Position numbers and translations under genes: made by a program. Source: Malacoraja senta (lineage: Eukaryota). Taken from it: a stretch of DNA of 60,000 nucleotides. The stretch spans positions 11,782,001 to 11,842,000 of the forward strand of contig CM075991.1 in the NCBI GenBank assembly GCA_038087875.1, read 5' to 3'. A model generated the notes under the pieces. That model was not told where the DNA came from, did no database searches, and worked only from the letters and a program-made list of their open reading frames with translations. Shown piece after piece: positions 2,017 to 58,798 of this stretch (positions are counted from its first letter, which is position 1; each line of letters begins with the position of its first letter).

Positions 2017-2136
2017 ATGACGAGTGAGCGGCCGAGGCCGAGCCCCGACGGGTGGGCGGAGGCGGAGGCGGAGGCGGGCAGTGCGGCGAGCGGCGGCGGC
2101 GGCGGCGGCGGCGGCGGAGGACCATGGAGCCGGTGA
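2017..2136 (+). CDS. 39-aa upstream ORF with (GGC)8(GGA)2 poly-Gly, overlapping the main ATG out of frame; alternatively the true N-terminus of the 2124 ORF separated by a 1-nt error
   Basis: gccgccATG Kozak context 23 nt after a polypyrimidine/CAG acceptor (1991-1993). Encodes [39 protein letters not shown]. Confidence 0.4.
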   Translation: MTSERPRPSPDGWAEAEAEAGSAASGGGGGGGGGGPWSR

Positions 2137-3377
2137 GCAGCGGCGAGGGCTGCTCGCGGGGGCTGGAGGCGCGGCGGGGCGGCCTCCGCAAGCACCGGCG
2201 AGGGACGGAGGGGGACGCGGACGAGGACATGGACTCACCCGGCGCCCACAACCGGTCGTGGTGGAAGGAGCTGGTGGAGCCGCCGGCCGCCTGCAGCAAT
2301 GGCCGCCGTCGCCAAGGCAACCGGGCGGAAGTGGAGACGGAGAGCGATCCGGATGTGGAGGCGCTGCCGGCGGCGTGTGCGTCGATGGCCGGGGTCCCCC
2401 GCGACTGCAAGAAGAGCCGCGGCAAGAGGAAGAACTTGGATGATTGCGACGACGAGGAGGAGGCGGAGGAGGAGGAGGAGATGGAGGAGAGGAGGAGGAG
2501 ATGCAACAACAACAACAACCGCAAGAAGCTGGTGAGGGACCGGGGGCTGCCGCTCAAGCGCACGCAAGGCGACACCCGCATGGGGCGGCTACTGGCGGCG
2601 GCTAGGCCCAGGCCTCCGTGTCCGTGTCCAGGCCTCCGGCCTCCGGACGGGCTGCCCCTCCCCCCCGGGCGCAGGGCCTCGGCCCCGCAGCCTCCTCCAC
2701 ATCCACCTCCGCCGCCGCTCACCTCGGCCAAGGTGCGGCTGAAGATGTGGGGCCGGGGCCGCGGGCGAGTGCGGGGATCTGGGCCTTGGGAGCGGGGCAA
2801 GAGCCGCCCGCCGGGCGCCGTCTGCCGGTCGGACGCCCAGACTCAGACCGACGAGGGGACCCCCAGCTGCTCCGACCCGTCCACCTCCGAGTCGAGCGCC
2901 GACCAGGGGGGGCCCCAGCCCTGCTCCCTCCGCATCCACACGCCGCCGGCCGCCGGGATGGGGATGGGGATGGGGAGGGTGGTGGAGCAGGAGGGGGGGG
3001 AGGAGGAGGAGGAGGAGAGCAGCAGCTCCGACTCCTGCACCAGCAGCAAGGACAGCTCGCAGCGGCTGGTGACTCCGGCCGGTTACCCCCGCCAATCCTT
3101 CCGGGCCTCAGCCGCCCGCCTGCCGTCCTTGTGCGACCCCCCGCCGCTGCCGACTCAGCCGGGCGGCATCTCCGGCCTGTGCCCCGGCGGCAGGGCGGGG
3201 ATCGCGGCCGGGGCCGGGGCCAGGGGCAGGGGCGGGCAACGACGGCGGAGAATGGCCTCGCCGGCCGACAACAGGTCGATGTGCTACACGGACAGATCGC
3301 GCCGGAGGAGAATGAACCGGGAGACGAACTGCCCGCCTCAGGACTTCCAGGAAAACTGGAGCTGTCTGATATTCTGA
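2124..3377 (+). CDS. Unidentified 417-aa low-complexity protein with C-terminal CaaX box (CLIF)
   Basis: Uninterrupted 1.25-kb ORF in a CpG island, with accATGG Kozak context and GC3-rich codons. Contains acidic runs, a Pro-rich segment, RG repeats and DAQTQTD, and ends ...QENWSCLIF*. AATAAA at 3430-3435. Family not recognised. Confidence 0.65.
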   Translation: MEPVSSGEGCSRGLEARRGGLRKHRRGTEGDADEDMDSPGAHNRSWWKELVEPPAACSNGRRRQGNRAEVETESDPDVEALPAACASMAGVPRDCKKSRGKRKNLDDCDDEEEAEEEEEMEERRRRCNNNNNRKKLVRDRGLPLKRTQGDTRMGRLLAAARPRPPCPCPGLRPPDGLPLPPGRRASAPQPPPHPPPPPLTSAKVRLKMWGRGRGRVRGSGPWERGKSRPPGAVCRSDAQTQTDEGTPSCSDPSTSESSADQGGPQPCSLRIHTPPAAGMGMGMGRVVEQEGGEEEEEESSSSDSCTSSKDSSQRLVTPAGYPRQSFRASAARLPSLCDPPPLPTQPGGISGLCPGGRAGIAAGAGARGRGGQRRRRMASPADNRSMCYTDRSRRRRMNRETNCPPQDFQENWSCLIF

Positions 3378-11320: not shown

Positions 11321-11984
11321 AGTCACTTACTTGATTAGACCTTCCCCACCAACAATACTCACCCTTAGACACAAAAAGCTGGGGTCAGGCAGCATCTCTG
11401 GAGAAAAGGAATAGGCGACGTTTCAAGTCAAGACCCTTCTTCAGACTTAAGAGACTGAAGAAGGGTCTTGACCCAAAACATTACTCTACCTTTCTCTGTT
11501 TCACTCCTTATACCTCTCATTTTTCTCTTTATCTCCCCTTCTCACTCTATCTCTCTCTACCTCTCTTCTCCATCTCCTCCCTCTACCCCGCTCTCATGTT
11601 TATCCAGGGTAGACAAAGATGGTGGAGAAGCTCAGCGGGTGAGGCAGCATCGCTGAGTTTCTCCAGCATCTTTGTCGACCTTCGATTTTTTCCAGCATCT
11701 GCACTTCTTTCTTATACATCATGCTTATCCAGTCTCTGTTGTCGGAGCTCGCTCTGCAGTTTCCCAGGACTCTGCACCAACTGCGATGTATTAGCTGTAG
11801 AATGTTGCATAGTTTGTGGTCTGTTGTCTCCCTGCATGTAAATCACAGACACCACTGCAGAGGAAAGCAGCCACGTTAATAAAAGTTGCGGCCAAACAAA
11901 CATCTGCTCCAAAAACACCACAGTCTCGGCCAGAGAGGTTGGAAATAAATTACTGTAACTACTCCAGAATTGTGGGTGGTGTCA

Positions 11985-16420: not shown

Positions 16421-16611
16421 CTATTCCTTCCAGTGATGACTCTTGCTGCTGTCCGGCGCTGTCATCAGCTTCTGCATCCAGTCCAGGTAGTTATGTACCT
16501 TGGTGTAGACGCCCGGCATATCCTTCTTGCCGCAGCCCACCCCCAGCTGATCACCCCCTGCAGGCGCATCCGATCCCCCTCCAGGCACACCAGCGGGCCC
16601 CCAGAGTCCCC
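16421..16611 (-). CDS. PLAT: PLAT last coding exon (catalytic Ser); 1-nt deletion in G-run at 16540-16544
   Basis: ctacag|[24 protein letters not shown] [shift] [39 protein letters not shown]. Confidence 0.9.
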
Positions 16612-19600
16612 CTGTAGAACAGACAGCAGCGTCAGGGTGGGGGCAGGTCAACATCCACACCCCATCCTCTACCCCCTCCCCTCCCCCACCACCACCTCCT
16701 CCCTCCCTCACCCACCATCCCTCCCCTCCCCCCCTCCCTCCCCCACCAGCCACTCCCCACCAGCACCCCATCACCCACTCCCCCACCCACCCTCCCCTCC
16801 CCCACCACCCCCTCCCCTCACCCACCATCCACTCCTCTCCCCCACCACCCCCTCCTTCCTCCCTCACCCACCATCCACTCCCCATCAATCCCATCAGCCC
16901 CCCCCTCACCCTCCCCTCCATAACCTCCCCCACGCACCCATCCCACCACCCCTCCCCTCCCCCCCATCCATTCCCCCACCCACCCTCCCCTCCCCCACCC
17001 ACCCTCCCCTCACCCACCATCCACTCCCCATCAATCCCTCCCCTCCCCCATCAGCCCCCCTCACCCTCCCCTCCATAACCTCCCCCACGCACCCACCCCC
17101 CCACTAATCAACCCCCCCCATCCATCTCAACCTCCCCCTCCACTAGATACCCCCCCCTCACCTTGCAGGCATCGCTGGTGCCGATGGTATCCCCGGCACA
17201 GATCATGTTGCCGGTGACGGTTCGGTTCTCGAGCCGAGCGGGGGTACACTGGCTCTCGGGGTACAGGCGCACGTTGGCCGTCTTCAGCTGCTTCGAGTAC
17301 CCGGGGCCGTCTGTGGGGGGACGGAGTGGGGGGGGGTCAGGGACGGCAACTCACCCTCCCCCCTCCTCCATACACACACACCCCCTCCCCAACCCCCCCC
17401 CCCACCCATCTCCTCCACAGCGAGTCCAGGAGTGAGGGAAGTACCACTCCCCTCTAGGCTCCCCCAGCCCCTTCTCCCTCCACCCTCCCCCCCCACACCC
17501 CATCACAGGAGCAAGATTATTGCGGCACGGTGGCGCAGCGGTAGAGACCCGGGTTCCATCCTAACTACGGGTGCTGTCTGTATGGAGTTTGTACTTTCTC
17601 CCTGTGACCTGCGTGGGTTTTCTCCGGGTGCTCCGGTTTCCCCCCACACTCCAAAGACGTGCAGGTTTGTAGGTTAATTGGCTTCTGCAAATTGTCCCTA
17701 ATGTGTGTAGGATAGTGCTAGTGTATGGGGTGATCGCTGGTCGGCACGGACCCGGTGGGCCGAAGGGCCTGTTTCCGTGCTGTATCTGTTAAGTCGTATG
17801 GATGGGCGAGGGTCAGAGGTCGTCTGTCCATTCCCTCCCTGGACGCTGACCGACCCGCTGCACCCCCCCCCCCCACACACAGTCAGTGCGGACAGTGGTC
17901 ACTCACATGCGTGCTCACGGCCATAGCCGGAGATCTCACACTCCATCCAGTCGGCTAGACGCTGGCCTCTCCGCGGCAGACACACCGGCCTCACCTGGCG
18001 AGTGGGGCGGGCACATACACCATCCTGGGGTCGCAGCTGGAGCAGCGCTGGGGGGAGAGAAACCATCACAGGAGGGTCACCGCATGGCACAGGGACACAG
18101 GCACACATACACTAGCACAGACACAGACACACAGACACTAGCACAGACACACAGACACAGACACACAGACACTAGCACAGACACACAGACACAGACACAC
18201 AGACACCAGCACAGACACAGACACACACACACTAGCCCAGTGGCACAGACACACAGACACTAGCACAGACACAGAGACACTAGCACATACACACAGACAC
18301 AGACACAGACACAGACACAGATACACAGACACTAGCACAGAGACACAGACACAGACACACAGACACAAGCACAGTGGCACAGACGCATACACAGACACAG
18401 ACACACAGACACAAGCACAGACACACAGACACAGACACAAGCACAGACACAGACACACAGACACTAGCACAGACACACAGACACAGACACAGACACAGTG
18501 ACACAGACACAGACACAAGCACAGTGGCACAGACACATACACTAGCACAGACACAGACATTAGCACCGTGACACAGACACAGACATTAGCACCGTGACAC
18601 AGACACAGACATTAGCACAGACACAGACACTAGCACAGTAGCACAGACACAGTGGCACAGACACACAGACACACAGACACACAGACACACAGACACACAG
18701 ACACAAGCACAGACACACAGACACACAGACACAAGCACAGTGGCACAGACACACAGACACAAGCACAGTGGCACAGACACACAGACACACAGACACAAGC
18801 ACAGACACAGACACTAGCACAGTGGCACAGACACACAGACACACAGACACAAGCACACAGACACAGTTGCACAGACACACAGACACAAGCACAGTTGCAC
18901 AGTGGCACAGACACACAGACACACAGACACAAGCACACAGACACAGTGGCACAGACACACAGACACAAGCACAGTTGCACAGACACACAGATACAGACAC
19001 AGACACACAGACACACAGACACAAGCACACAGACACAGTTGCACAGACACACAGACACAAGCACAGACACACAGACGCACAGATACAGACGCCAGCTTGG
19101 GGTCGCAGCAGCAGGGGGAGATAAACCATTATAGGAGGGTCACTGTATGGCACAAACACTCAGAAGGGGGGGGGGGTTATGGTGGGTGGAGGTGTGAGGA
19201 GGAGAGATGTGGGGGCATTAAGGGCAGGCAGGGTTGGTTTGGGGGGGTATGGAGGGAGTGGGGAGAGAGGGGGAGTAGGAGTGGCCCGGGTTCGGGGGGG
19301 GGGGGCTGGTGGGGGGAGAGGAGGGGGGTGGTAGGGTCCGGGGAGGGAGGGAGGGGGGGCAGGGGTGGTAGGGTCCGGGGGGAGGGGGAGAGGGTTGTAC
19401 CCATACCGATGTCGTGGTCGAAGGTATCGCCGTCGAAGTCCTTATGCAGGAAGTAGTCGTCCACCCGGAGCAGCTGCTCTGCTGCCGATTCCCGCTCGCT
19501 CAGCGTGCGGCCCAGTGCCACCCGCAATCCCCAGGCTTCTCTCCCTGTGGCACAGAGACTGGACGTTAGCCCCGACACCCTGTACCCAGCCCTGCCCTGT

Positions 19601-22600
19601 ACCCCCTTCACCCACCCAGCGCCACCCGTCACTGCCCCCTGTAGGTGTGCCCACACCCAGGGGCGGAAATCCTGGGGGGTACAGGGGGTGGGGGGGGGGG
19701 GGGGCACGTCCCCCTCATGTTTTGATAGCGATTTCCGTGCCTGCCCACACCCTGCCACCGAACCACTCTCCCCGAGACCCGCCTCGCAGACAGCTGTGGG
19801 TCAAATGCAGGCAACTAAAAATAGTTCCGTTGGCCACAGTATGGAAATTGGGAGGTCATGTTGCAGTTGTACAAGACGTTGGTGATACCGCATTTAGAAT
19901 ATTGTGTTTAGTTCTGGGCACCATGTTAGAAACATAGAAAATAGGTGCAGGAGGAGGCCATTCGGCCTTCGAGCCAGCACCGCCATTCATTGTGATCATG
20001 GCTGATCTTCCCCAATCAATAACCCGTGCCCGCCTTCTCCCCATATCCCTTGATTCCACTAGCCCCTAGAGCTCTATCTATAGAAACATAGAAAATATGT
20101 TGTAGGAAATATATTGTCAAGCTTGAAAGGGTTCAGAAAAGATTTACGAGGATGCTGCCAGAGGGTCTGAGCTATAGGGAGAGGTTGAGTAGGCTGGGTC
20201 TCTATTCCATGGAGCGCAGGAGGATGAGGGGAGATCTTGTAGAGGTATACAGAATCATGAGAGGAATAGATCGGGTAGATGCACAGAGTCTTCTACCCAG
20301 AGTAGGGGAATTGAGGACCAGAGGACATGTTTCAAGGTGAAGGGGAAAAGATTTAATAGGAATCCGAGGCGTGACTTTTTCACACGGAGGGTGGTGGGTG
20401 TATGGAACAAGCTGCCAGAGGAGGTAGTTCAGGCTGGGACCAACCCATCGTTTAAGAAACAGGTGCATGGATAGGTCAGGTTTGGACCAAGCGCAGGCAA
20501 ATGGGACTAGTGTAGCTGGGACATTATTGGCCGGTGTGGGCGAGTTGGGCCGAAGGGCCTGTTTCCACACTGTATCACTCTGTGACTCTATGACACCTTG
20601 GTCAGCTGGCTGCCCATTTGCCCCCGGCCGCCTTACCTGTTCTCGAAGCAGTGGGCAGCAGAGACAACCCAGCAGGAGCGGATCAGGCTTCCTCCACAAT
20701 GGAAGTTCCACGACTTAGCCCTGCGGTTGAAGGTTAAGATGGCAACCTGCCAGGGGTGGGAGCTGATGTCCACGGGCGACCCGCCCAGGATGCGGAACTG
20801 CGCCATCTCCGGCTCCCTCTTGCCACACATCTTCTCTGCACACAGAGACACACACACACACCAGAGTCAACACTGCCTCTCGCCAGACTAAAACCATCGC
20901 GCAAACCAACCTTCCCTCCATCCACCCCATCTACACCTCACGCTGAAGACAGACACAAAAAGCTGGAGTAACTCAGCTGGACGGGCAGCATCTCTGAAGA
21001 AGAGGTCTCGACCCGAAACGTCACCCATTCCTTCTCTCCTGAGATGCTGCCTGTCGCGCTGAGTTACTCCAGATGTTTGTGTCTATCTTCCGTTAAAAAC
21101 CAGCATCGGCAGTCCCTTCCCACACCGCAAGGCCAGCAGCATCATCAAGGACCAGTCGCACCCCGGCCACTCCCTCTTCTCCCCTCTCCCATCGGGCAAG
21201 ATGTACAGAAGTGTGAAAACTCACACCTCCAGATTCAGGGACAGTTTCTTTCCAGCTGTTATCAGGCAACTGAACCATCCCCTCACGAACTAGAGAGTGG
21301 TCCTGACCTCCCATCTACTGAGTACAGACTGAACCCAAAACATCACCTATCCATGTTCTCCAAAGATGCTGCCTGACCCGCTGAGTTACTCCAGCATTTC
21401 TGTGTCTTTCTCTGAAGTGTCATATTCAGCACGAACACCTAATTTAGTTTCGAGACACAGCACGGAAACAGGCCCTTCGGCCCACCGAGTCCGCACACTG
21501 GTTCTATGTTATCCTCATCCATTAGGGGGCAATTTACAGAGGGGGCAATTAACCAACAAACCTGCACGTCTTTGGGATGTGGGTGGAAACCGGAGCACCC
21601 GGAGGAAACCCACGCAGTCACAAGGAGAACACGCAAACTCCACCAGAGGTCAGGATCGAACCTGGGGCTCTGGCACTGTGAGGCAGCGGCACTACCTGCC
21701 GCCCCATCAGTATTGTGTGTCGTGCTGTGCTGCTGATCTATGTTCTAAGCCAGACCCACCACCCTCTGCTTTAACTTTCTAACTCGTTTTTCTTCAAGAC
21801 AGCAAGGGATTGGAGTTCCCTCCCAGCCAGCATCAGAGGTCTCCAAAACATCAACACATCCAAAGATGCAACTCCAAAAGCATTTCCACCTCCACTAGGT
21901 GGGGGGGGGGGGTTTGGGGGAGGGGTATTCTCACCGTCTGGGTCACAGGATTGGATGCCACAATGCTCCTTGATAGCCCTGCGTCCCTTCCTGATGTAGC
22001 ACCACGGCTCACTGTCTCCACTGGGATTCCTGCAACGACACACAGCCACCGTTAAAGGGCCTGTGCCACTTCCCCCGATTTTTTTTCGCCGACTTGCCGG
22101 CACTCGTCATTGTCGCAGCAGGTCGCCGAAAGTTTTCAACACTTTGGAAATTTTTGGCGACCTGCTGCGACTATGACGCCTGTTGGGTCGTGAGTAGTCG
22201 CCCAAAGAGTCGTACCTTTTTCCGGTCGCCGCTGGATTTTCAGCATAATGAAATTTTTCGGCAACCTGCTGCGACTATGACGGGTGGCGGCAAGTCGCCG
22301 AAAAAATTCGCGTAAGTGGGACAGGCCCTTAAGTGGGACAACGTCTTTGCGTTGAGCTTCCAATGGATGTCCTTCCACCATTTGACACCAAGTGACCTCA
22401 CCGCCACTCATTGCCCCACCCTCTCCTTCGACCCCTACTCTCCCTCCCACCCCCTCCCTTCATGCTCCCCTCCCTCAACACCCCCCACCCTCCCACCCGT
22501 ACCTGCAGTATCTGTGGCTGCCCAGGTCCAGTTCATGGGCCTTGTTTGACCAGGCGTTGTACAGCCGCGCCCGCAGCTCCTCGCTGTCCCAGCTCAGGCA

Positions 22601-23016
22601 CAATCTCCCCGACACTGAGCGGCTCACCGTGCCCCGGTAATCCCCGCCGCCGCCCGACACGCACTCCGAGGCTGCTTCTGTGGGGAAGAGGGGCCGGAAT
22701 CAGCACCGTGGGGGTGTGTGGGGGGTGGGGGGGGTTAGTGGGGGTGACGGTGGGGGCGCCGCAGTCAGACGCGTCATATCATTATGATGGGCGGGGGAAT
22801 CCCCCTCCCTGCCCTTGCCCACCCTCCCCCTTATCCCTATCGCCCCCTCCCCGTATCTCCCTCCTCGCCCTATCCCCCCACCCCCTGTTCCTCTCACCCC
22901 CCCCCTGTGGCGGTGGTCACTCACGGTCGGGGCAGGGGTCCAGGCGGCATCTCTCCCAGCCCACCACGTGCCCAATGTAGACGTGGCACCAGGGCGTCGT
23001 GTCATCGTCGGGGTTC
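16421..23016 (-). CDS. PLAT: Tissue-type plasminogen activator, 3' part of gene (8 exons: kringle half, full kringle, serine protease domain)
   Basis: Two kringles, QFR|ILGG activation site, catalytic AAHC / DHDI / GDSGGP, S1 Asp (DACK) and conserved NRT glycosylation site. Exon phases match tPA, and the gene lies next to IKBKB. Confidence 0.9.
17162..17310 (-). CDS. PLAT: PLAT protease exon (149 nt)
   Basis: cccacag|(Y)[49 protein letters not shown]|gtgagg. Confidence 0.93.
17523..17790 (+). mobile_element. HE1-type V-SINE
   Basis: tRNA-like head, V-domain, and gggccgaagggcctgtttcc tail. Confidence 0.85.
17907..18047 (-). CDS. PLAT: PLAT protease exon (141 nt)
   Basis: cccccag|[47 protein letters not shown]|gtgagt. 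Confidence 0.93.
18095..19085. repeat. (CACAGA)n-type satellite, about 1 kb, in a PLAT intron
   Basis: Direct inspection; source of the TDTQTHRH and CLCV ORFs. Confidence 0.9.
19407..19544 (-). CDS. PLAT: PLAT protease exon with catalytic Asp; 138 nt from the best acceptor, 1 nt out of phase
   Basis: ccacag|gg [45 protein letters not shown] g|gtatgg. Confidence 0.88.
19830..20590 (+). mobile_element. CR1 LINE 3' fragment with a nested antisense CR1 tail (~19927-20090)
   Basis: [38 protein letters not shown]. Confidence 0.85.
20637..20835 (-). CDS. PLAT: PLAT exon: activation site and catalytic His (199 nt)
   Basis: gtgcag|[66 protein letters not shown] ag|gtaagg. Confidence 0.95.
21935..22029 (-). 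CDS. PLAT: PLAT protease-proximal kringle, second half (95 nt)
   Basis: ttgcag|[32 protein letters not shown]|gtgaga. Confidence 0.93.
22056..22329. mobile_element. PIF/Harbinger-type MITE (274 bp)
   Basis: TIRs AGGGCCTGTGCCACTT...AAGTGGGACAGGCCCT flanked by TAA on both sides (22053-55, 22330-32); interior is largely self-complementary. Confidence 0.8.
22503..22677 (-). CDS. PLAT: PLAT protease-proximal kringle, first half (175 nt; tandem CAG-AAG-CAG acceptors)
   Basis: cccacag|[59 protein letters not shown]|gtacgg. Confidence 0.93.
22925..23016 (-). CDS. PLAT: PLAT upstream kringle, second half (92 nt)
   Basis: ttgcag|[31 protein letters not shown]|gtgagt. Confidence 0.93.
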
Positions 23017-23055
23017 CTGCAACGGGCACACGTTACACAGTGTCTCCCCCACATT

Positions 23056-23720: not shown

Positions 23721-25374
23721 TCTAGGTTTCTATGTTTCTATGAGACCCACGCAGTCACCGGGAGAACGTGCAAACTCCACACAGACAGCATCTGAGGCGA
23801 GGATCGAACCCGGGTCTCTGGCGCCGGGAGGAAGCAGCTCTATCACTGCGTTGCTGTGACTCCCTGTGGGAATACAGTCATCTCGGGCAGTGAAGGCGTT
23901 GGCGCGCTGTCGGGATTGTGGAGTCAGTGCGATGGGAACTAACACAAACATTTGTGTGATTCCAATGCCTGGGAACATGGAGCTGGCGACTATCTCCATG
24001 GACGCCACCCCATTTCCTAAAGCGGATGACTAGTTCTTTCATCTTGCGGCCTTTGAGGGGAGGGGTTGTTGTCGTGACACCATGCTCCCCATCCCATGGA
24101 TGAACGCTCCATTTCCACTTTGATTAGTCAGAGAGATCAGGTGGAGAACTGGGTGGAACATTTGGCAGATGCAATTTAATTCCCAGCAGGTTTGTGATCA
24201 TGTATTTTGGGGCAGACATGTGCCCTGAATGGTTGGGCACTAAGGATAAACGGAGGGATCAAGGCCCCTCTTCAAGGCATTGTGCGTCTATCTTCGGTGT
24301 AAACCAGCATCTGTAGTTCCTTCTTCCACAATGGAACATGCAGTTCTTACTCGCTACAGCACAACGGGCCTGTAAACACAACACATAAATAACATACAAA
24401 TGCAATTCAATAACTCTAGACTTTAGAGATAGAGTGTGTAAACAGGCCCTTCAGTCCCAGCGAGTCCGCTCCAACCAGAAATCACTCCATACACAAGCAC
24501 TATCCTTCTGAATCAGTCTGAAGATGGGTTTCGGGCCGAAACGTTGCCTATTTCCTTCGCTCCATAGATGCTGCTGCACCCGCTGAGTTTCTCCAGCACT
24601 TTTGTCTAGCTTCGATATTCCAGCATCTGCAGTTCCTTCTTGAGCACTATCCTTCACACTAGGGACAATTTACAATTTGCAGAAGCCAATTAACCTACAT
24701 ATCTGCACGTCTTTGCGATGTGGGAGGAAACCGGAGCACCCGGAGGAAACCCACGCGGTCACAGGGAGAGCGTGCAGGGAGATCGAACCCGGGGTGTCTG
24801 GCGCTGCAAGGCAGCAGCTCTACCCGCTGCACCACCTTTGATGACCATAATAGTTAATAACTATAATACAAGTGTGAGTCTGTGAACTGTAATCGGCGGC
24901 TAGTTTTGGCGCCGTTTCACAGTCCCAGCTGTAGCTGGCCATCAAGGCCCGTGCCATCGTCCCCAGAACCATCGTCCCTCTCCTTGCCCGGCCACCGAGG
25001 TTACACAAGGTCCTTGGTGCGACTGAGAACAGAAGGGGGGGGGGGGGGGTCCCAGAAAATGCTGCAAAGGGGCGAGAGGACAACCAACTAAAAACTAAAA
25101 CGTACATAACGTCATTCGGCCCTCTTGTCTCTGATTGAAAACATGCGATCAAACACGCAAACGAGCATTGCGAAAGATTTTCTAACTAAATTGTAACTGT
25201 TCTTGGAAAACTGATCATCGTGTTAATGTAAAATAGGGCATTGAACCTCATGCTGAATTATAATCTATTTTTAATGATATCGCCAGTGGAATAAAAGTAA
25301 CATGAATCTGGGGCAAAAAATCCATGAAGATCAATGTAAATAAAATAGCTGAGAATAAGGAAGTCATGAAGTTG

Positions 25375-25745: not shown

Positions 25746-27279
25746 TGAAATCTGACATTCAATCCGTTCCATTCACGTTACAGAAACTTGCCCTTCCAGA
25801 ATCCAGGGATCATGACCTAACAATTTCAGATAGGGATTAAAGTTGCTCTCATTGGAACTTATGCATCTGAAGGGTCTGAAAAACAGTTGCTGTTTTCGTG
25901 GTGAATGGAGGGGGTTGAGGCTGGAATGTTGGAGTAAGGAGTGAACGATAACATTGTGTTTTCACAAGAGGGTGATACAGGGGACCGGTGAATGTTTGTT
26001 CAACATGTCAGGCACAATGAGCTCTGGGTTCTGTTCGGAAGGAAGCAATTGAATAGAGTTTTTCTTGGTAATGAATCAGAAACCCCAGAGGATTTCTTTT
26101 ATGCGAATTGCATTTTTAAATATAAATAATTCTTGGTCGATGCTGGGGACCGGTTAAAGGCTCCTGGACATCGCCAGGACAACAGACCTTCATGGTCAGA
26201 TCAAGATCCCTGCACTTACTACAACTGAGGCATGATAATGGCGCCAAACTGGCGAGGCTGCACACTCTGTAGGAAGGAACTGCAGATGCTGCTTTACACA
26301 GAAGATAGACACAAAATGCTGGAGTAACTCCGCAGGACAGGCAGCATCTCTGGAGAGAAGGAATGGGAGATGCTGCCTGTCCTGCTGAGTTACTCCAGCT
26401 GTTTGTGTCTATCTTTGGTTTGAACCAGCAACTGCAGTTCCTTCCTACACACTGCTAGACAGTTGTACTGTATCTCAGCGGGTGCGGCAGCATCTATGGA
26501 GCGAAGGAAATAGGCAACTTTTCAGGCCGATACCCTTCTTCAGACCTGAAGAAGGGGTTCGACTCGAAACGTTGCCTATTTCCTTCACTCCATAGATGCT
26601 GCTGCACCCGCTTAGTTTCTCCAGCATTTTTGTCTACCTTCGATTTTCCAGCATCTGCGCTTCCTTCTTGAACAGTTGTACTGTAACTGATGGTAGACAA
26701 AAAAGCAGGAGAAACTCAGCGGGTGAGGCAGCATCTATGGAGCAAAGGAATAGGTGACGTTTGGGGTCGAGACCCTTCTTATCTGAGATGCTTGTCTAAG
26801 GTATCTGAGAATCTAGGGATATGGGGAAAAAGCAGGAACGTCCTGAGGTTTATCATCGATTGAAAGATACAGCACAGAAACTTCAGCCCACTGAGTCTTT
26901 GCTATTGAGGGAGTGCAGCGTAGGTTCACCAGATTAATTCCCGGGATGGCGGGACTGTCATATGCTGAGAGAATGGAGCGGCTGGGCTTGTACACTCTGG
27001 GAATTTAGAAGGATGAGAGGGGTTCTTATTGAAACATATAAGATTGTTACGGGTTTTTCAACCAAGCTCTCCTGCTCGACATATGCCTCCCATCCTCTAC
27101 TCCCAACATTATAAACATATTATACTAAATTATTGTGGAGTCATAGAGAGATACAGCACTGAAACGGGCCCTTCCGGCCCACTGACTCCATACTGACCAT
27201 CAATCACCCACTATTCATATCCAACTTTTCTCTCTCCATATTGTCATCAATTCCCTACACACAATTTACAGCACCAGGA

Positions 27280-27850
27280 GCACCTGGAGTATTGTGTGCA
27301 GTTTTGGTCCCCTAATTTGAGGAAGGACATTCTTGCTATTGAGGGAGTGCAGCGTAGGTTTACAAGGTTAATTCCCGGGATGGCGGGACTGTCATATGCT
27401 GAGAGAATGGAGCGGCTGGGCTTGTACACTCTGGAATTTAGAAGGATGAGAGGGTTTCTTATTGAAACATATAAGATTGTTAAGGGTTTGGACACGCTAG
27501 AGGCAGGAAAACATGTTCCCGATGTTGGGGGAGTCAGAACCAGGGACCACAGTTTAAAAATAAACAGTTTATACACAGTTTAATAAACCATTTTAGAACG
27601 GAGATGAGGAAACACTTTTTCACAGAGAGGTTATGAATCTGTGGAATTCTCTGCCTCAGAGGCCGGTTCTCTGGATATTTTCAAGAGAGAGCTAGATAGG
27701 GCTCTTAAAAATAGCGGAGTCAGGGGATATGGGGAGAAAGCAGGAACGGGGTACTGATTGGGGATGATCAGCCATGATCACATTGAATGGCAGTGCTGGC
27801 TCGAAGGGCCAAATGGCCTGCTCCTGCACCTATTGTATATTGTTTATTGT
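27280..27850 (+). mobile_element. CR1 LINE 3' fragment
   Basis: QFWSPNLRKDILAIEGVQRRFTRLIPGMAGLSYAERMERLGLYTLEFRRMRG. Confidence 0.9.
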
Positions 27851-29062: not shown

Positions 29063-29423
29063 CAAAGATCCTATAGCAGAGCAAGATAGACCACTCCTTC
29101 TAAATGCAATGGGGCTGACGTGTAGTACGCAACGGAGCCCGACCCGACCCGACCCGCAGTGTAATCAACGTTGCGGGGGAACAGTTTGTGTTAATAAATT
29201 ATAATTCTGAAAATGAGGAGAAGATTTTTCCCAAATAACTTTTATTTTTACGAGGATGTTTCCGTAACCGGCTTCCGTCTCCGCACCAGTATCCTATGGG
29301 ATCTTTGGTGCGGAGACGGAAGCTGCTTACGGAAATGGGGCCAAAAATTAACCATGGATCTGCCCTTGACCGTACTATGTCTTTCTCGTCGAGTGATGTA
29401 TCTTGCCTGCTATAGGATCTTAG
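29063..29423. mobile_element. Non-autonomous DNA transposon (361 bp), ~30-bp TIRs, 8-bp TSD GTCTGAAG; P- or hAT-superfamily-like
   Basis: CAAAGATCCTATAGCAGAGCAAGATA...TATCTTGCCTGCTATAGGATCTTAG, with GTCTGAAG at 29055-62 and 29424-31. Confidence 0.8.
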
Positions 29424-30060
29424 GTCTGAAGAAGGGTCTTGACCCGAAATGTCACCCATTCCTTCTCACCAGAGATGCTGCCTGTCCCGCTGAGTTACTC
29501 CAGCATTTTGCGTCTACACGGTGCTGGGCAAGATGCATTCCTTTAGTTACTGGCCGGATGCTTCCTGAACTATGTGGAAGCAGGAAGGAAGGTGAGTGTA
29601 GGAGGCCAGGACATTGTATGAATGTAAGGGAAGGCTATGACGTGCCAACGCTGGGTGTGTCTCGGATGTGAGAATCCGCTGATACTAGTGTGAGGCTGCC
29701 TGTCTGAAGAAGGGTCTCGACCCGAAACGTCATCCATTCCTTCTCTCCAGAGATGCTGCCTGTCTCGCTGAGTTACTCCCCAGCGGTATGAACATAGACT
29801 TCTCCAATTTCAGGTAGTCCCTGCTTTCTCCCTCCTTCCCTCCCCCTTCCCAGCCCACGGTCTCCGCCTCTTCCTTTCATCTTCCCGCCCCCCCCACATC
29901 AATCTGAAGAAGGGTCTCGACCCGAAATGTTACCTATTCCTTCGCTCCATTGATGCTGCCTCACCCGCTGAGTTTCTCCAGCATTTTTGTCTACCTTCGC
30001 TGAGTTACTCCAGCTTTTTGTGCCTATCTTCGGTTTAAACCAGCATCTGCAGTTCGTGCC
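29424..30060 (+). mobile_element. Cluster of Penelope-like short elements with hammerhead motifs (cores at 29426, 29704, 29904)
   Basis: Three copies of CTGAAGA-A-GGGTCTyGACCC-GAAAyGTy, each followed by the conserved body ..ttcc..agatgctgcct....cgctgagtt.ctcc.. Confidence 0.7.
29704..29731 (+). ncRNA. Minimal type I hammerhead ribozyme motif (best copy of a multi-copy family)
   Basis: CUGAAGA, extra A, stem II GGGU-CUCG-ACCC, GAAAC, GUC cleavage triplet. Confidence 0.6.
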
Positions 30061-30585: not shown

Positions 30586-30824
30586 GACAATAAAACACTC
30601 TTGACTCATGAGCAACGTCTTGTATAACTGTAACATTGATTTTCAACTTCTATACTCAATGTCCTGACTGATGAAGACCACTGTGTCAAAAGCCTTCTTC
30701 ATCACCCTGCCCACCACCAAGGGGCCGAATGGCCTCTTCCTTGCCCCTGGTTTGTGTGTTCATGTGAGGGGGGGGGGGGGGAGATAATTATGTAACCAAA
30801 TATCCAAGAACCTTTTGGAAACAC

Positions 30825-32080
30825 AAGGAAACATGTTCCCGATGTTGGGGGAGTCCAGAACCAGAGGTCACAATTTAAGAATAAGGGGTAACCCATTTAG
30901 GACTGAGATGAGGGAAAACTTTTTCACCCAGAGAGTTGTGAATCTGTGGAATTCTCTGCCTCAGAAGGCGGTGGAGGCCAATTCTCTGGATGCTTTCAAG
31001 AGAGAGTTCGATAGAGCTCTTAAAGATAGCGGAGTCAGAGGATATGGCGAGAAGGCAGGAACGGGTTACTGATTGGGGATGATCAGCCGTGATCACAGTG
31101 AATGGCGGTGCTGGCTCGAAGGGCCGAATGGCCCACTCCTGCACCTGTTGTCTATTGTCGGTTCTGCTTCAGTACATTGAGCGAGCGGGCCGACCGGACT
31201 GGACTTTGAATAAAGGCACCAAAGATGGTGGCGGATGCGTGTGTAACAAATGCAAACATAATTTCACTGTGCAATCGTGTACGTGACAAATAAAACACCA
31301 ATATGGAAAATGCTGTAGTTTCCATCTCTTGCCTTCGCCACTGAAAACCAACATCAAGATGTTTTCGGTGGTGAGACGTGGAGATAAGGGACTAAACTTA
31401 ATCAGATCGCCACATGATGCTTAGCTGACAGCAAGGTGAAATGAATGTTGTTAATGCAAAGAACAAACAAATAAACTCCAGATTTATCTCAACAACTTGC
31501 AGGCTTCTCCCTCACGAGTGTGGAGCACGGCAGCAACACAAGTGAATACTCAGCCGTCACCAGTTGCAACACATCATGGCAAAGCCATGGAGCCAAGATT
31601 CACTGGGATTTAGAAGGATGAGAGGGGATCTTCTGGATCTGGATGTAATACACTGAAAAGCTCCAGGTAGAGCAATACTCAGCACTATGATGGTGCTGGA
31701 TAAATCAGGGAACCAGATATCCAAGAACCTCTTGGAGACACAAGGAAAAATGTTCCCGATGTTGGGGGAGTCCAGAACCAGGGGTCACAATTTTAGGATA
31801 AGGGGTAACCCATTTAGGACTGAGATGAGGAAAAACTTTTTCACCCAGAGAGTTGTGAATCTGTGGAATTTTCTGCCACAGACAGCAGTGGAGGCCAATT
31901 CACTGGATGTTTTCAAGAGAGAGTCAGATTTAGCTCTTAGGGCTAATGGAATCAAGGGATATGGGGAGAAGGCAGGAACAGGGTACTGATTGTGGATGAT
32001 CAGCCATGATCATATTGAATGACGGTGCAGGCATGAAGGGCCGAATGGCCTCCTTCTGCAACTATTTTCTATGTTACTAT
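30825..32080 (+). mobile_element. Two CR1 3' fragments (~30825-31160, ~31745-32080)
   Basis: MFPMLGESRTRGHN.RIRGNPFRTEMR.NFFTQRVVNLWN in both. Confidence 0.85.
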
Positions 32081-32199
32081 GACACAAAATGCTGGAGTAA
32101 CTCAACAGGTCAGGCAGTATCTCTGGAGAACATGGATTGGTGATGCTTCAGGTCGGGACTGGGACAGAAGGAAAATGGTCTGAAGAAGGGTCTTGATCT

Positions 32200-32463
32200 G
32201 TAACGTTACCCATCCATGTTCTCCACAGATGCTGCCTGACCCGCTGAGTTACTCCAGCACTCTGTGAAACGTCACCTATCCATGTTCTCCACAGATGCTG
32301 CCTGACCCGCTGAGTTACTCCAGCACTCTGTGAAACGTCACCTATCCATGTTCTCCACAGATGCTGCCTGACCCGCTGAGTTACTCCAGCACTCTGTGAA
32401 ACGTCACCTATCCATGTTCTCCACAGATGCTGCCTGACCCGCTGAGTTACTCCAGCACTCTAT
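32200..32463 (+). repeat. Tandem repeat, 4 x 66 nt, derived from the hammerhead-bearing element
   Basis: Units start at 32200, 32266, 32332 and 32398: gaaacgtcacctatccatgttctccacagatgctgcctgacccgctgagttactccagcactctgt. Confidence 0.9.
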
Positions 32464-32669
32464 GTCCAGTACTGAAGTGGAATCCCAACCCAAAAGGCCG
32501 CCTGTCTCCTCGGCCTCCGCAGAAGCTGCTCCACCCGCTGAGTTGCTGCGGCCGTTTGTTTTTGCCTGAGAACCTCTTGCCTCCCCGGGAGGAGCGCCGG
32601 GGAACGTGTGCGGGCTTGCTGCCAACGCGACCCTCTAACCCGCCTCTGTTGCCCACAGGGTGAGTGAGG

Positions 32670-58798
<26,129 letters not shown>

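Follow-up and report, generated by a model that had tools for sequence, protein, structure and literature searches.

We are confident that the hammerhead-like repeat scattered through a 60,000-nt stretch of the Malacoraja senta genome (assembly GCA_038087875.1, contig CM075991.1, positions 11,782,001 to 11,842,000; hereafter the window) is the hammerhead-bearing pLTR of a Penelope-like retrotransposon with a Neptune-type linker, and that its short copies are likely by-products of TPRT on uncut RNA.

Hammerhead cores in the window

A loose scan for CTGANGA..GAAA gave 15 matches in the window: the 12 cores listed by the initial annotation, two copies missing from that list (minus 26543 and minus 11444) and an unrelated one at minus 52619. 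The 10 listed plus cores sit exactly where they had been placed, and the two minus cores are likewise real, with positions refined to 37939-37915 and 47495-47472. The high copy number was borne out by a profile built from the repeat copies themselves, which found 52 fragments in the window and none in the reversed sequence. A strict descriptor was also applied, demanding an intact core, stem II of at least 4 bp, a paired stem III and stem I of at least 2 bp. It was passed by three of the 12 listed cores (29426, 29704 and 50271), as well as by minus 11444, and by nothing in 20 shuffles of the window. The repeated hammerhead-like feature is real and far above chance. An Rfam scan returned no hammerhead family at E<=1, because minimal hammerhead motifs are too short for it.

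As first suggested, and in agreement with the motif of PMC4209133, the architecture is that of a minimal type I hammerhead: CUGANGA, an extra nucleotide, the G10.1-C11.1 pair, GAAA, a palindromic 15.2-16.2 and UH. The extra nucleotide after A9 is A in 280 of 298 distinct copies. In the core at 29704, H17 is C29731, the position at which the cut had been predicted. Two points of the first description need amending. Stem III, given as ACGU, reads AUGU at 29426 and 29904 owing to CpG decay; and the element length is not a continuum of 110-150 nt, as the copies end at about +95 or about +132. Copies and neighbouring features are collected in Table 1.

Table 1. Copies of the repeat, and their context, in the window (window coordinates).
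Positions	Strand	Feature	Match
11351..11486	both	Head-to-head pair; strict minus core 11444	
20944..21117	both	Head-to-head pair, tail on + arm; core 20994 with an extra stem II base	
24516..24648	+	Solo pLTR with tail, young subfamily, 13-bp target-site duplication on its flanks	
26427..26677	both	Head-to-head pair, cores 26546 (+) and 26543 (-)	
29424..29516	+	Tailless solo pLTR head; 3-bp stem I and AUGU stem III in core 29426-29453	
29702..29781	+	pLTR head, positions +1 to +80; its core 29704-29731 would be cut after C29731	
29779..29817	+	Penelope RT-GIY-YIG ORF, final 12 codons with stop, from a 5'-truncated copy	82% to endonuclease C-terminus (tblastn)
29818..29901	+	Pyrimidine-rich 3' UTR of the element, last bases a TCAGT-like motif	
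29902..29998	+	Truncated copy's 3' pLTR, from the other subfamily; core 29904-29931 with 1 bp of stem I in cis	
29998..30060	+	Duplicated pLTR end bearing a ~35-nt tail	
32081..32476	both	Head-to-head pair, then three more 66-nt head-to-tail part copies lacking the core 5' half	
32670..32775	+	First IKBKB coding exon (context)	E 4.6e-11 to IKK-beta, 1.5e-4 to IKK-alpha
37839..37941	-	Solo pLTR, 10-bp target-site duplication	
40467..40568	+	Solo pLTR in IKBKB intron; small duplication breaks stem III	
47400..47568	-	Element 5' UTR and ORF start (47568-47494) joined to pLTR head, core 47495	
50162..50354	both	Head-to-head pair in IKBKB intron; strict core 50271 on + arm, tail on - arm	
53570..53811	both	Short head (core 53572) plus head-to-head pair	
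56877..57011	+	Tailed pLTR plus part of the 3' UTR; no pairing in stem I of core 56893	

The parent element

A GIY-YIG search of the genome recovered two families. At 16 of the 17 loci of the dispersed family that were examined, the repeat lies on the same strand 80-230 nt (mostly 100-120) past the ORF end. With an RT piece of this family as query, many long open frames were located; the repeat is present downstream at all 20 long-ORF loci examined and also directly upstream at 6 of them. Since six pLTR-ORF-pLTR units (3918-4152 nt) are 98.8-99.7% alike, the family is probably young and active. Thus, the link to Penelope and to RT and GIY-YIG ORFs, raised by the initial annotation, holds: intact RT-GIY-YIG ORFs adjoin the repeat in the same genome.

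The 1212-aa protein carries DKG, YIDD, a CX4CxxC linker at residue 1079 and a CxxC between the GIY/YIG-like halves. Pfam RVT_1 and GIY-YIG match the full protein with scores under the curated cut-offs, and GIY-YIG lies above its cut-off in one copy (L052). [quoted passage not shown] The CX2-5CxxC linker between RT and EN is a mark of the Neptune clade that is common to Nematis, and this motif points to one of these two clades. Among 240 protein homologues, the best 120 are 38-55% identical and nearly all unnamed, with no clade-labelled Neptune or Nematis protein among these 120. The young element's protein (L101:3337-6972) also has a long Pro/Ser-rich insert at residues about 175-480, in which 78-nt units have expanded with the frame kept; the lengths are 1224-1302 codons, compared with mostly 700-950 aa for the homologues.

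The other, telomeric GIY-YIG family was considered as the parent and rejected: a profile check of loci L031, L032 and L034-L051 gave only two weak matches (L039), neither adjoining the ORF end. This second Penelope-like family consists of tandem arrays of a near-identical 759-aa RT plus GIY-YIG ORF with a Cys linker, found on contig 14 (18.24-18.41 Mb), contigs 5550 and 2147 and the start of contig 17 (L051, L054, L068). The ORF is preceded by a 528-codon frame with a weak GDSL/SGNH match (E 0.004), several arrays adjoin telomere-like hexamer repeats, and the family has its own hammerhead-like core, with a poor stem I. Our literature search met no report of such an element in fish, and this family is possibly more novel than the pLTR finding.

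The 200-nt pair and the retrozyme question

In the stretch at 29424-30060, the head at 29702-29781 is joined to the ORF-end part through about 12 nt of microhomology with the ORF, and the truncated copy shows 87% DNA identity to an element copy (L060) over 127 nt. A CpG-rich stretch with a short CCCGA repeat lies just 5' of it (window 29100-29400) and may be another repeat or a promoter. The initial annotation had pointed out that two cores here are exactly 200 nt apart, in the manner of tandem retrozyme monomers. The spacing is correct; the monomer repeat is not. The copies with cores 29704 and 29904 are identical at 66 of 80 positions, are 82% and 92% identical to the young element, and are of different subfamilies (clustering put the 29902 copy in the young cluster, the 29702 head being too short to cluster). 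Because the subfamilies differ and the ORF end and 3' UTR lie between the cores, the 200-nt spacing is the length of the truncated copy.

A wider form of the same idea is that the short copies are non-LTR retrozymes, produced when hammerheads in tandem units cleave the RNA into small circles, which are then reverse transcribed by rolling circle. Retrozymes have been derived from pLTRs, and reported in one chondrichthyan, in a preprint (10.64898/2026.07.22.740005). Retrozyme-like arrays of the pLTR family do exist elsewhere in this genome, one of 13 x 384 nt (L183, contig 1:28901500-28908500) and one of 3 x 254 nt (L184), with an intact core in every unit. Their units are internally deleted young elements, and each array ends at the +98 or +132 site, with an 11-bp duplication on its flanks. 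Judged by sequence, these arrays of complete hammerheads in at least two consecutive units fit the retrozyme definition, in-place expansion being another possibility. The window, however, holds no such tandem: the unit between its two cores lacks the +95/+132 priming sites, no spacing is common or recurrent among the 24 same-strand neighbours up to 800 nt away (window and spaced stretches, 660 kb), and solo copies begin at TCAGT rather than at arbitrary points of a circle. We consider a retrozyme origin of the short copies highly improbable and retain the reading of TPRT by-products.

Abundance and anatomy of the insertions

Abundance was estimated from 60 samples of 10 kb placed at round coordinates, of which 55 came from large contigs and 5 from smaller ones; small contigs are under-represented. 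The profile found 303 fragments in these 600 kb, that is 5.05 per 10 kb (bootstrap 4.1-6.1), covering 4.8% of bases; scaled to 1.94 Gb, this amounts to roughly 0.8-1.2 million fragments. The strict descriptor found 28 motifs in the same sample, as opposed to none in five shuffles, which scales to a rough figure of about 90,000 strict minimal hammerheads genome-wide. Fragment density elsewhere ranges over 0-16 per 10 kb, as compared with 52 fragments in the 60-kb window. The last residues of the ORF were covered by just 16 alignments in the 600 kb, and therefore most fragments have no detectable attached ORF. Another abundant repeat, with RT-like frames upstream of its 3' ends, has at least 11-14 such ends in the window (e.g. 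27659-27849, 30786-31164 and 34507-34885); its copies are presumably CR1/L2-type LINEs.

The anatomy of the insertions was examined in 569 fragments from 1.1 Mb, comprising the window, spaced stretches and the flanks of targeted loci. Pairs among them are head-to-head in 83 cases and tail-to-tail in 3. Fragment 3' ends (n=355) fall at model positions 86-108 in 171 cases and 129-139 in 136, so that two clusters hold 307 of the 355; the second cluster is the model's end, and the position of about +132 was set by full-length copies and flank duplications. The two 3' ends are about 35 nt apart, which corresponds to the 30-40 nt tail of EN+ Penelope-like elements; the inverted pairs and target-site duplications that vary in length are likewise marks of that group. 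Penelope elements are known for their tails, inverted copies and duplications (PMC8557442, PMC3846280). Of 80 pairs, 55 have exactly one tailed arm (49.8% expected, P=0.0007); the tail tends to be on the arm whose 5' end is the shorter (31/45, P=0.016). The flanks share words of at least 7 bp in 33 of 69 pairs, compared with 2.6% of control pairings, and in 33 of 113 solo heads, for which the controls gave 3.7%. Since flank duplications surround both solos and pairs, these are insertions in their own right and not only leftovers of recombination. The duplications are AT-rich (68% AT vs 56%).

5' ends and a proposed route of insertion

Among 163 copies reaching CTGA, 37 run on into the native, pyrimidine-rich 3' UTR and 126 are preceded by unrelated sequence. 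Base identity upstream of CTGA is 82% at -1 and falls to background by -6/-7. Copy 5' ends pile up at TCAGT, and the next 62 positions hold only 138 spread starts. Duplications of at least 9 bp flank 17 of the 112 solo copies examined, and 10 of these 17 junctions lie within -4..+2 of CTGA. No pile-up occurs at the cut site, near which only 6 starts and 2 ends were counted among 355 fragments; the templates therefore carried an uncut hammerhead. This agrees with the Anolis Poseidon element PAc, whose HHR mutants insert normally and from which no reads begin at the cut site (PMC11167929).

In a cap-G test, the base before AGT was A in 12 cases, G in 11 and T in 3, and the base before GT was G in 13, T in 6 and C in 2; a clean extra cap-derived G was seen at none of the 17 duplication-defined junctions. 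Contigs of other organisms from four guessed-RNA runs show the same element boundaries, with loose ends at the same places, although assembled contigs cannot reveal transcript starts, ends or levels. TCAGT resembles the initiator (Inr) consensus. An Inr-like TCACT occurs in a rotifer pLTR (PMC3846280), and Penelope of D. virilis has an internal promoter (PMC2377424).

We propose the following route. TCAGT would act as an initiator-like transcription start. By analogy with PAc, the element protein would nick DNA and start cDNA synthesis at internal points of the RNA, which lie about 95 or 132 nt downstream of TCAGT. If the first pLTR is primed, synthesis would run off at the RNA 5' end after 95-135 nt, and a solo head would be inserted; priming at the second pLTR would give ordinary 5'-truncated copies, such as 29779-29998. 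Both nicked strands might prime, mostly one per start site, and the cDNA ends would then anneal by microhomology into one-tailed inverted pairs. The hammerhead of the master element is probably real yet weak, and would need protein or a dimer.

The sharp 5' end and the inverted pairs might be explained otherwise, by an RT stop or a splice acceptor in the first case and by snap-back or self-priming on an antisense template in the second. The native context before the core is a pyrimidine tract closing in CAG, and in D. virilis an intron has its 3' end at the 5' end of helix I (PMC4209133). For head-to-head pairs, antisense self-priming has been suggested (PMC3846280), and the arms of the present pairs share subfamily-diagnostic bases (78% vs 51% at random). 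However, bases upstream of the supposed acceptor (T, C, A or G) are often retained at the junctions, where no constant first exon is seen, and plain snap-back alone does not predict a tail on a single arm. The joined donor-acceptor form was found at 2 places in one inverted locus, as opposed to 884 unspliced ORF-start matches, which makes splicing or back-splicing unlikely as the main origin of the 5' end. At that locus (L161:1386-1871), a donor-like site at the ORF start is joined exactly to the acceptor-like site before the core in both arms of one inverted insertion; spliced or circular RNA may have been retrocopied there, or a 2-nt jump may have arisen by chance. Overall, we regard this group of explanations as unlikely and prefer initiation at TCAGT with priming at two sites.

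The proposal can be carried further, with a good deal of doubt on our side. Possibly the first 95-135 nt are captured as 'strong-stop'-like cDNA, perhaps as a SINE-like self-transcribed unit mobilised in trans, reaching about a million copies and carrying a built-in anti-ribozyme helix, with the arrays as nascent retrozymes. If true, the copies would record the RNA start, two priming sites and two-ended priming; the anti-ribozyme helix would keep the templates uncut; this would be the most abundant hammerhead family that we found reported for any genome; and the duplication-flanked arrays of 254- and 384-nt units would be retrozymes arising from a still-active parent.

Is the core a ribozyme?

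Whether the motif cleaves is a separate question for master elements and for single copies. The consensuses of six subfamilies vary in 1 of 13 columns of the core and in 25 of 71 elsewhere, a borderline difference (P=0.056); the single variable core column is a CpG, in a small old cluster. The large subfamilies keep all catalytic nucleotides, the extra nucleotide after A9, the G10.1-C11.1 pair and the 15.2-16.2 palindrome, and H17 varies almost wholly within the allowed bases (C 207, U 72, A 7, G 1).

Two lines of support anticipated by the initial annotation were absent among the copies. First, the core nucleotides show no excess conservation. Raw divergence is 5.4% in the core vs 9.0% outside it, and 4.9% vs 6.7% after subfamily-variable and CpG columns are removed (7 vs 43 columns, P=0.11). 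Mutation has struck the CpG at G12 in 78 of 327 copies, a share no lower than that of CpGs at non-core positions. Second, covariation in the helices was not found among the 298 distinct copies, in which the paired cells match the expectation under independence; one subfamily U-A to U-G change is the only one in the helices. The copies decay neutrally. This is what is expected of dead copies, and it is therefore no argument against activity of the masters.

Pairing in stem I is poor. It amounts to 2 bp in 25 of 28 strict motifs, short of the 4-5 bp of a usual helix I, and the third pair is A-C in 148/163 copies. Predicted folding yields stem II for no more than the first ~32 nt; thereafter a helix formed with the downstream pyrimidine tract replaces it. 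For 29695-29945, the double-hammerhead fold is predicted at -20.6 kcal/mol vs a minimum of -43.0, about 22 kcal/mol above it.

It could be argued that the motif is no ribozyme even in the masters and was kept as a promoter or protein-binding sequence. The stem I of the masters is only 2 bp, stem II is predicted to be disrupted, after synthesis of about 40 nt, by pairing between the downstream pyrimidine tract and the 5' core, and the copies lack covariation. In addition, HHR mutants of PAc still insert in vitro (PMC11167929), and 8 of 9 Xenopus dimers did not cleave (preprint 10.64898/2026.07.22.740005). Against this stand the retention of the whole catalytic layout in the large subfamilies, the restricted variation at H17 and the behaviour of the PAc motif, which cleaves with protein and responds to C3G/G8C rescue (PMC11167929). 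We think it doubtful that the motif is no ribozyme at all, and favour, as reasonably probable, weak cleavage in master elements that is assisted by protein or depends on dimers. Cleavage by single genomic copies is very unlikely; these copies, including those in IKBKB introns, are likely inert, in keeping with an early caveat that many would be inactive.

Host context

The assignment of IKBKB to the plus strand was correct, with the start codon at 32670, later exons at 56138 and 58645 and the C-terminal domain 4 kb past the window. An elasmobranch host had also been deduced; the best named match of one IKBKB exon is electric ray IKBKB (94%). That sense copies lie inside IKBKB pre-mRNA is true of 10 fragments in the coding span. 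The copies at 29426-29935 come 2.7-3.2 kb before the start codon; with an acceptor-like site in front of the first coding exon, it is possible that they lie within a 5' UTR intron of IKBKB.

Some copies might be thought to have been co-opted as cleaving regulators of IKBKB pre-mRNA, given one strict sense core (50271) in an IKBKB intron. We find this scarcely credible, for the copies occur at ordinary density and without strand bias (10 sense vs 13 antisense fragments in the coding span), decay neutrally and are predicted to misfold. To IKBKB they look like ordinary repeat debris.

Several other features were noted. Four 66-nt head-to-tail pLTR part copies (32178-32476) lie 200 nt upstream of the first IKBKB coding exon. 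Minus-strand exons of a kringle and trypsin protease, probably tissue plasminogen activator, lie head to head with IKBKB (window 16468-23054); the two genes are neighbours in human as well. A GC-rich open frame of 449 codons with acidic and basic runs occupies window 2028-3377 (+). The other IKK paralogue occurs twice with the same exon spacing (contig 14:14.36-14.39 Mb and contig 3009), probably as an uncollapsed haplotype.

Comparison with known systems

The role of the hammerhead and the origin of tails and inverted ends in Penelope-like elements can be approached in this genome, where a young, intact element is accompanied by hundreds of thousands of insertions. Their ends are readable as a record of the reaction: the templates were uncut, the 5' end is fixed, and the arms of inverted pairs divide two priming sites between them. 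Hammerheads in pLTRs are themselves known; the novelty lies in the scale, in the intact parent and in the statistics of the ends.

Hammerheads have been described in the Penelope pLTRs of fish, coelacanth, frogs and reptiles (PMC4209133), and the portion of that report used here mentions none in chondrichthyans. Our search of literature on shark, skate or ray Penelope hammerheads met no description of the present family, which Repbase/Dfam and the preprint supplements, lying outside that search, may catalogue. The minimal type I motifs of that report and ours have in common the missing helix III loop, the palindromic 15.2-16.2, the nucleotide between 9 and 10.1, the G10.1-C11.1 pair, a hammerhead in both pLTRs and a predominance of single dispersed motifs. 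Helix I of 2 bp is like that of D. virilis, whereas helix II has 4 bp here and 7-8 in Schistosoma (PMC4209133). The ~90,000 strict motifs compare with about 4,000 in coelacanth and 9,000 in Xenopus (PMC4209133), counts obtained with different descriptors.

PAc (PMC11167929) is similar: its HHR lies where pLTR and ORF meet, two 3' ends follow downstream with 30-40 nt between them, and uncut RNA is inserted into AT-rich targets. It differs from the present element in several respects. First, the Cys linker found here is absent in Penelope/Poseidon (PMC8557442). Second, the ORF starts about 165 nt past the core here and in stem II in PAc. Third, the present protein has 1212 aa with a long Pro-rich insert, and copies consisting of the pLTR alone are in huge excess. 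With the EN+ elements Neptune and Nematis (PMC8557442), it shares a C-terminal GIY-YIG with cysteines between the halves, the CX2-5CxxC linker, DKG, partial tandems, an inverted 5'-truncated copy, a tail at one end and a pLTR HHR; unlike in those elements, no (TA)n bias was seen in the target-site duplications listed here.

Finally, non-LTR retrozymes (PMC7229834; preprint 10.64898/2026.07.22.740005) likewise carry a type I HHR and derive from pLTRs. They form arrays of repeated monomers, such HHR arrays being reported by the preprint for one chondrichthyan, whereas the copies in the window are solo heads, inverted pairs and truncated copies. The arrays found elsewhere in the present genome link the pLTRs to retrozymes.
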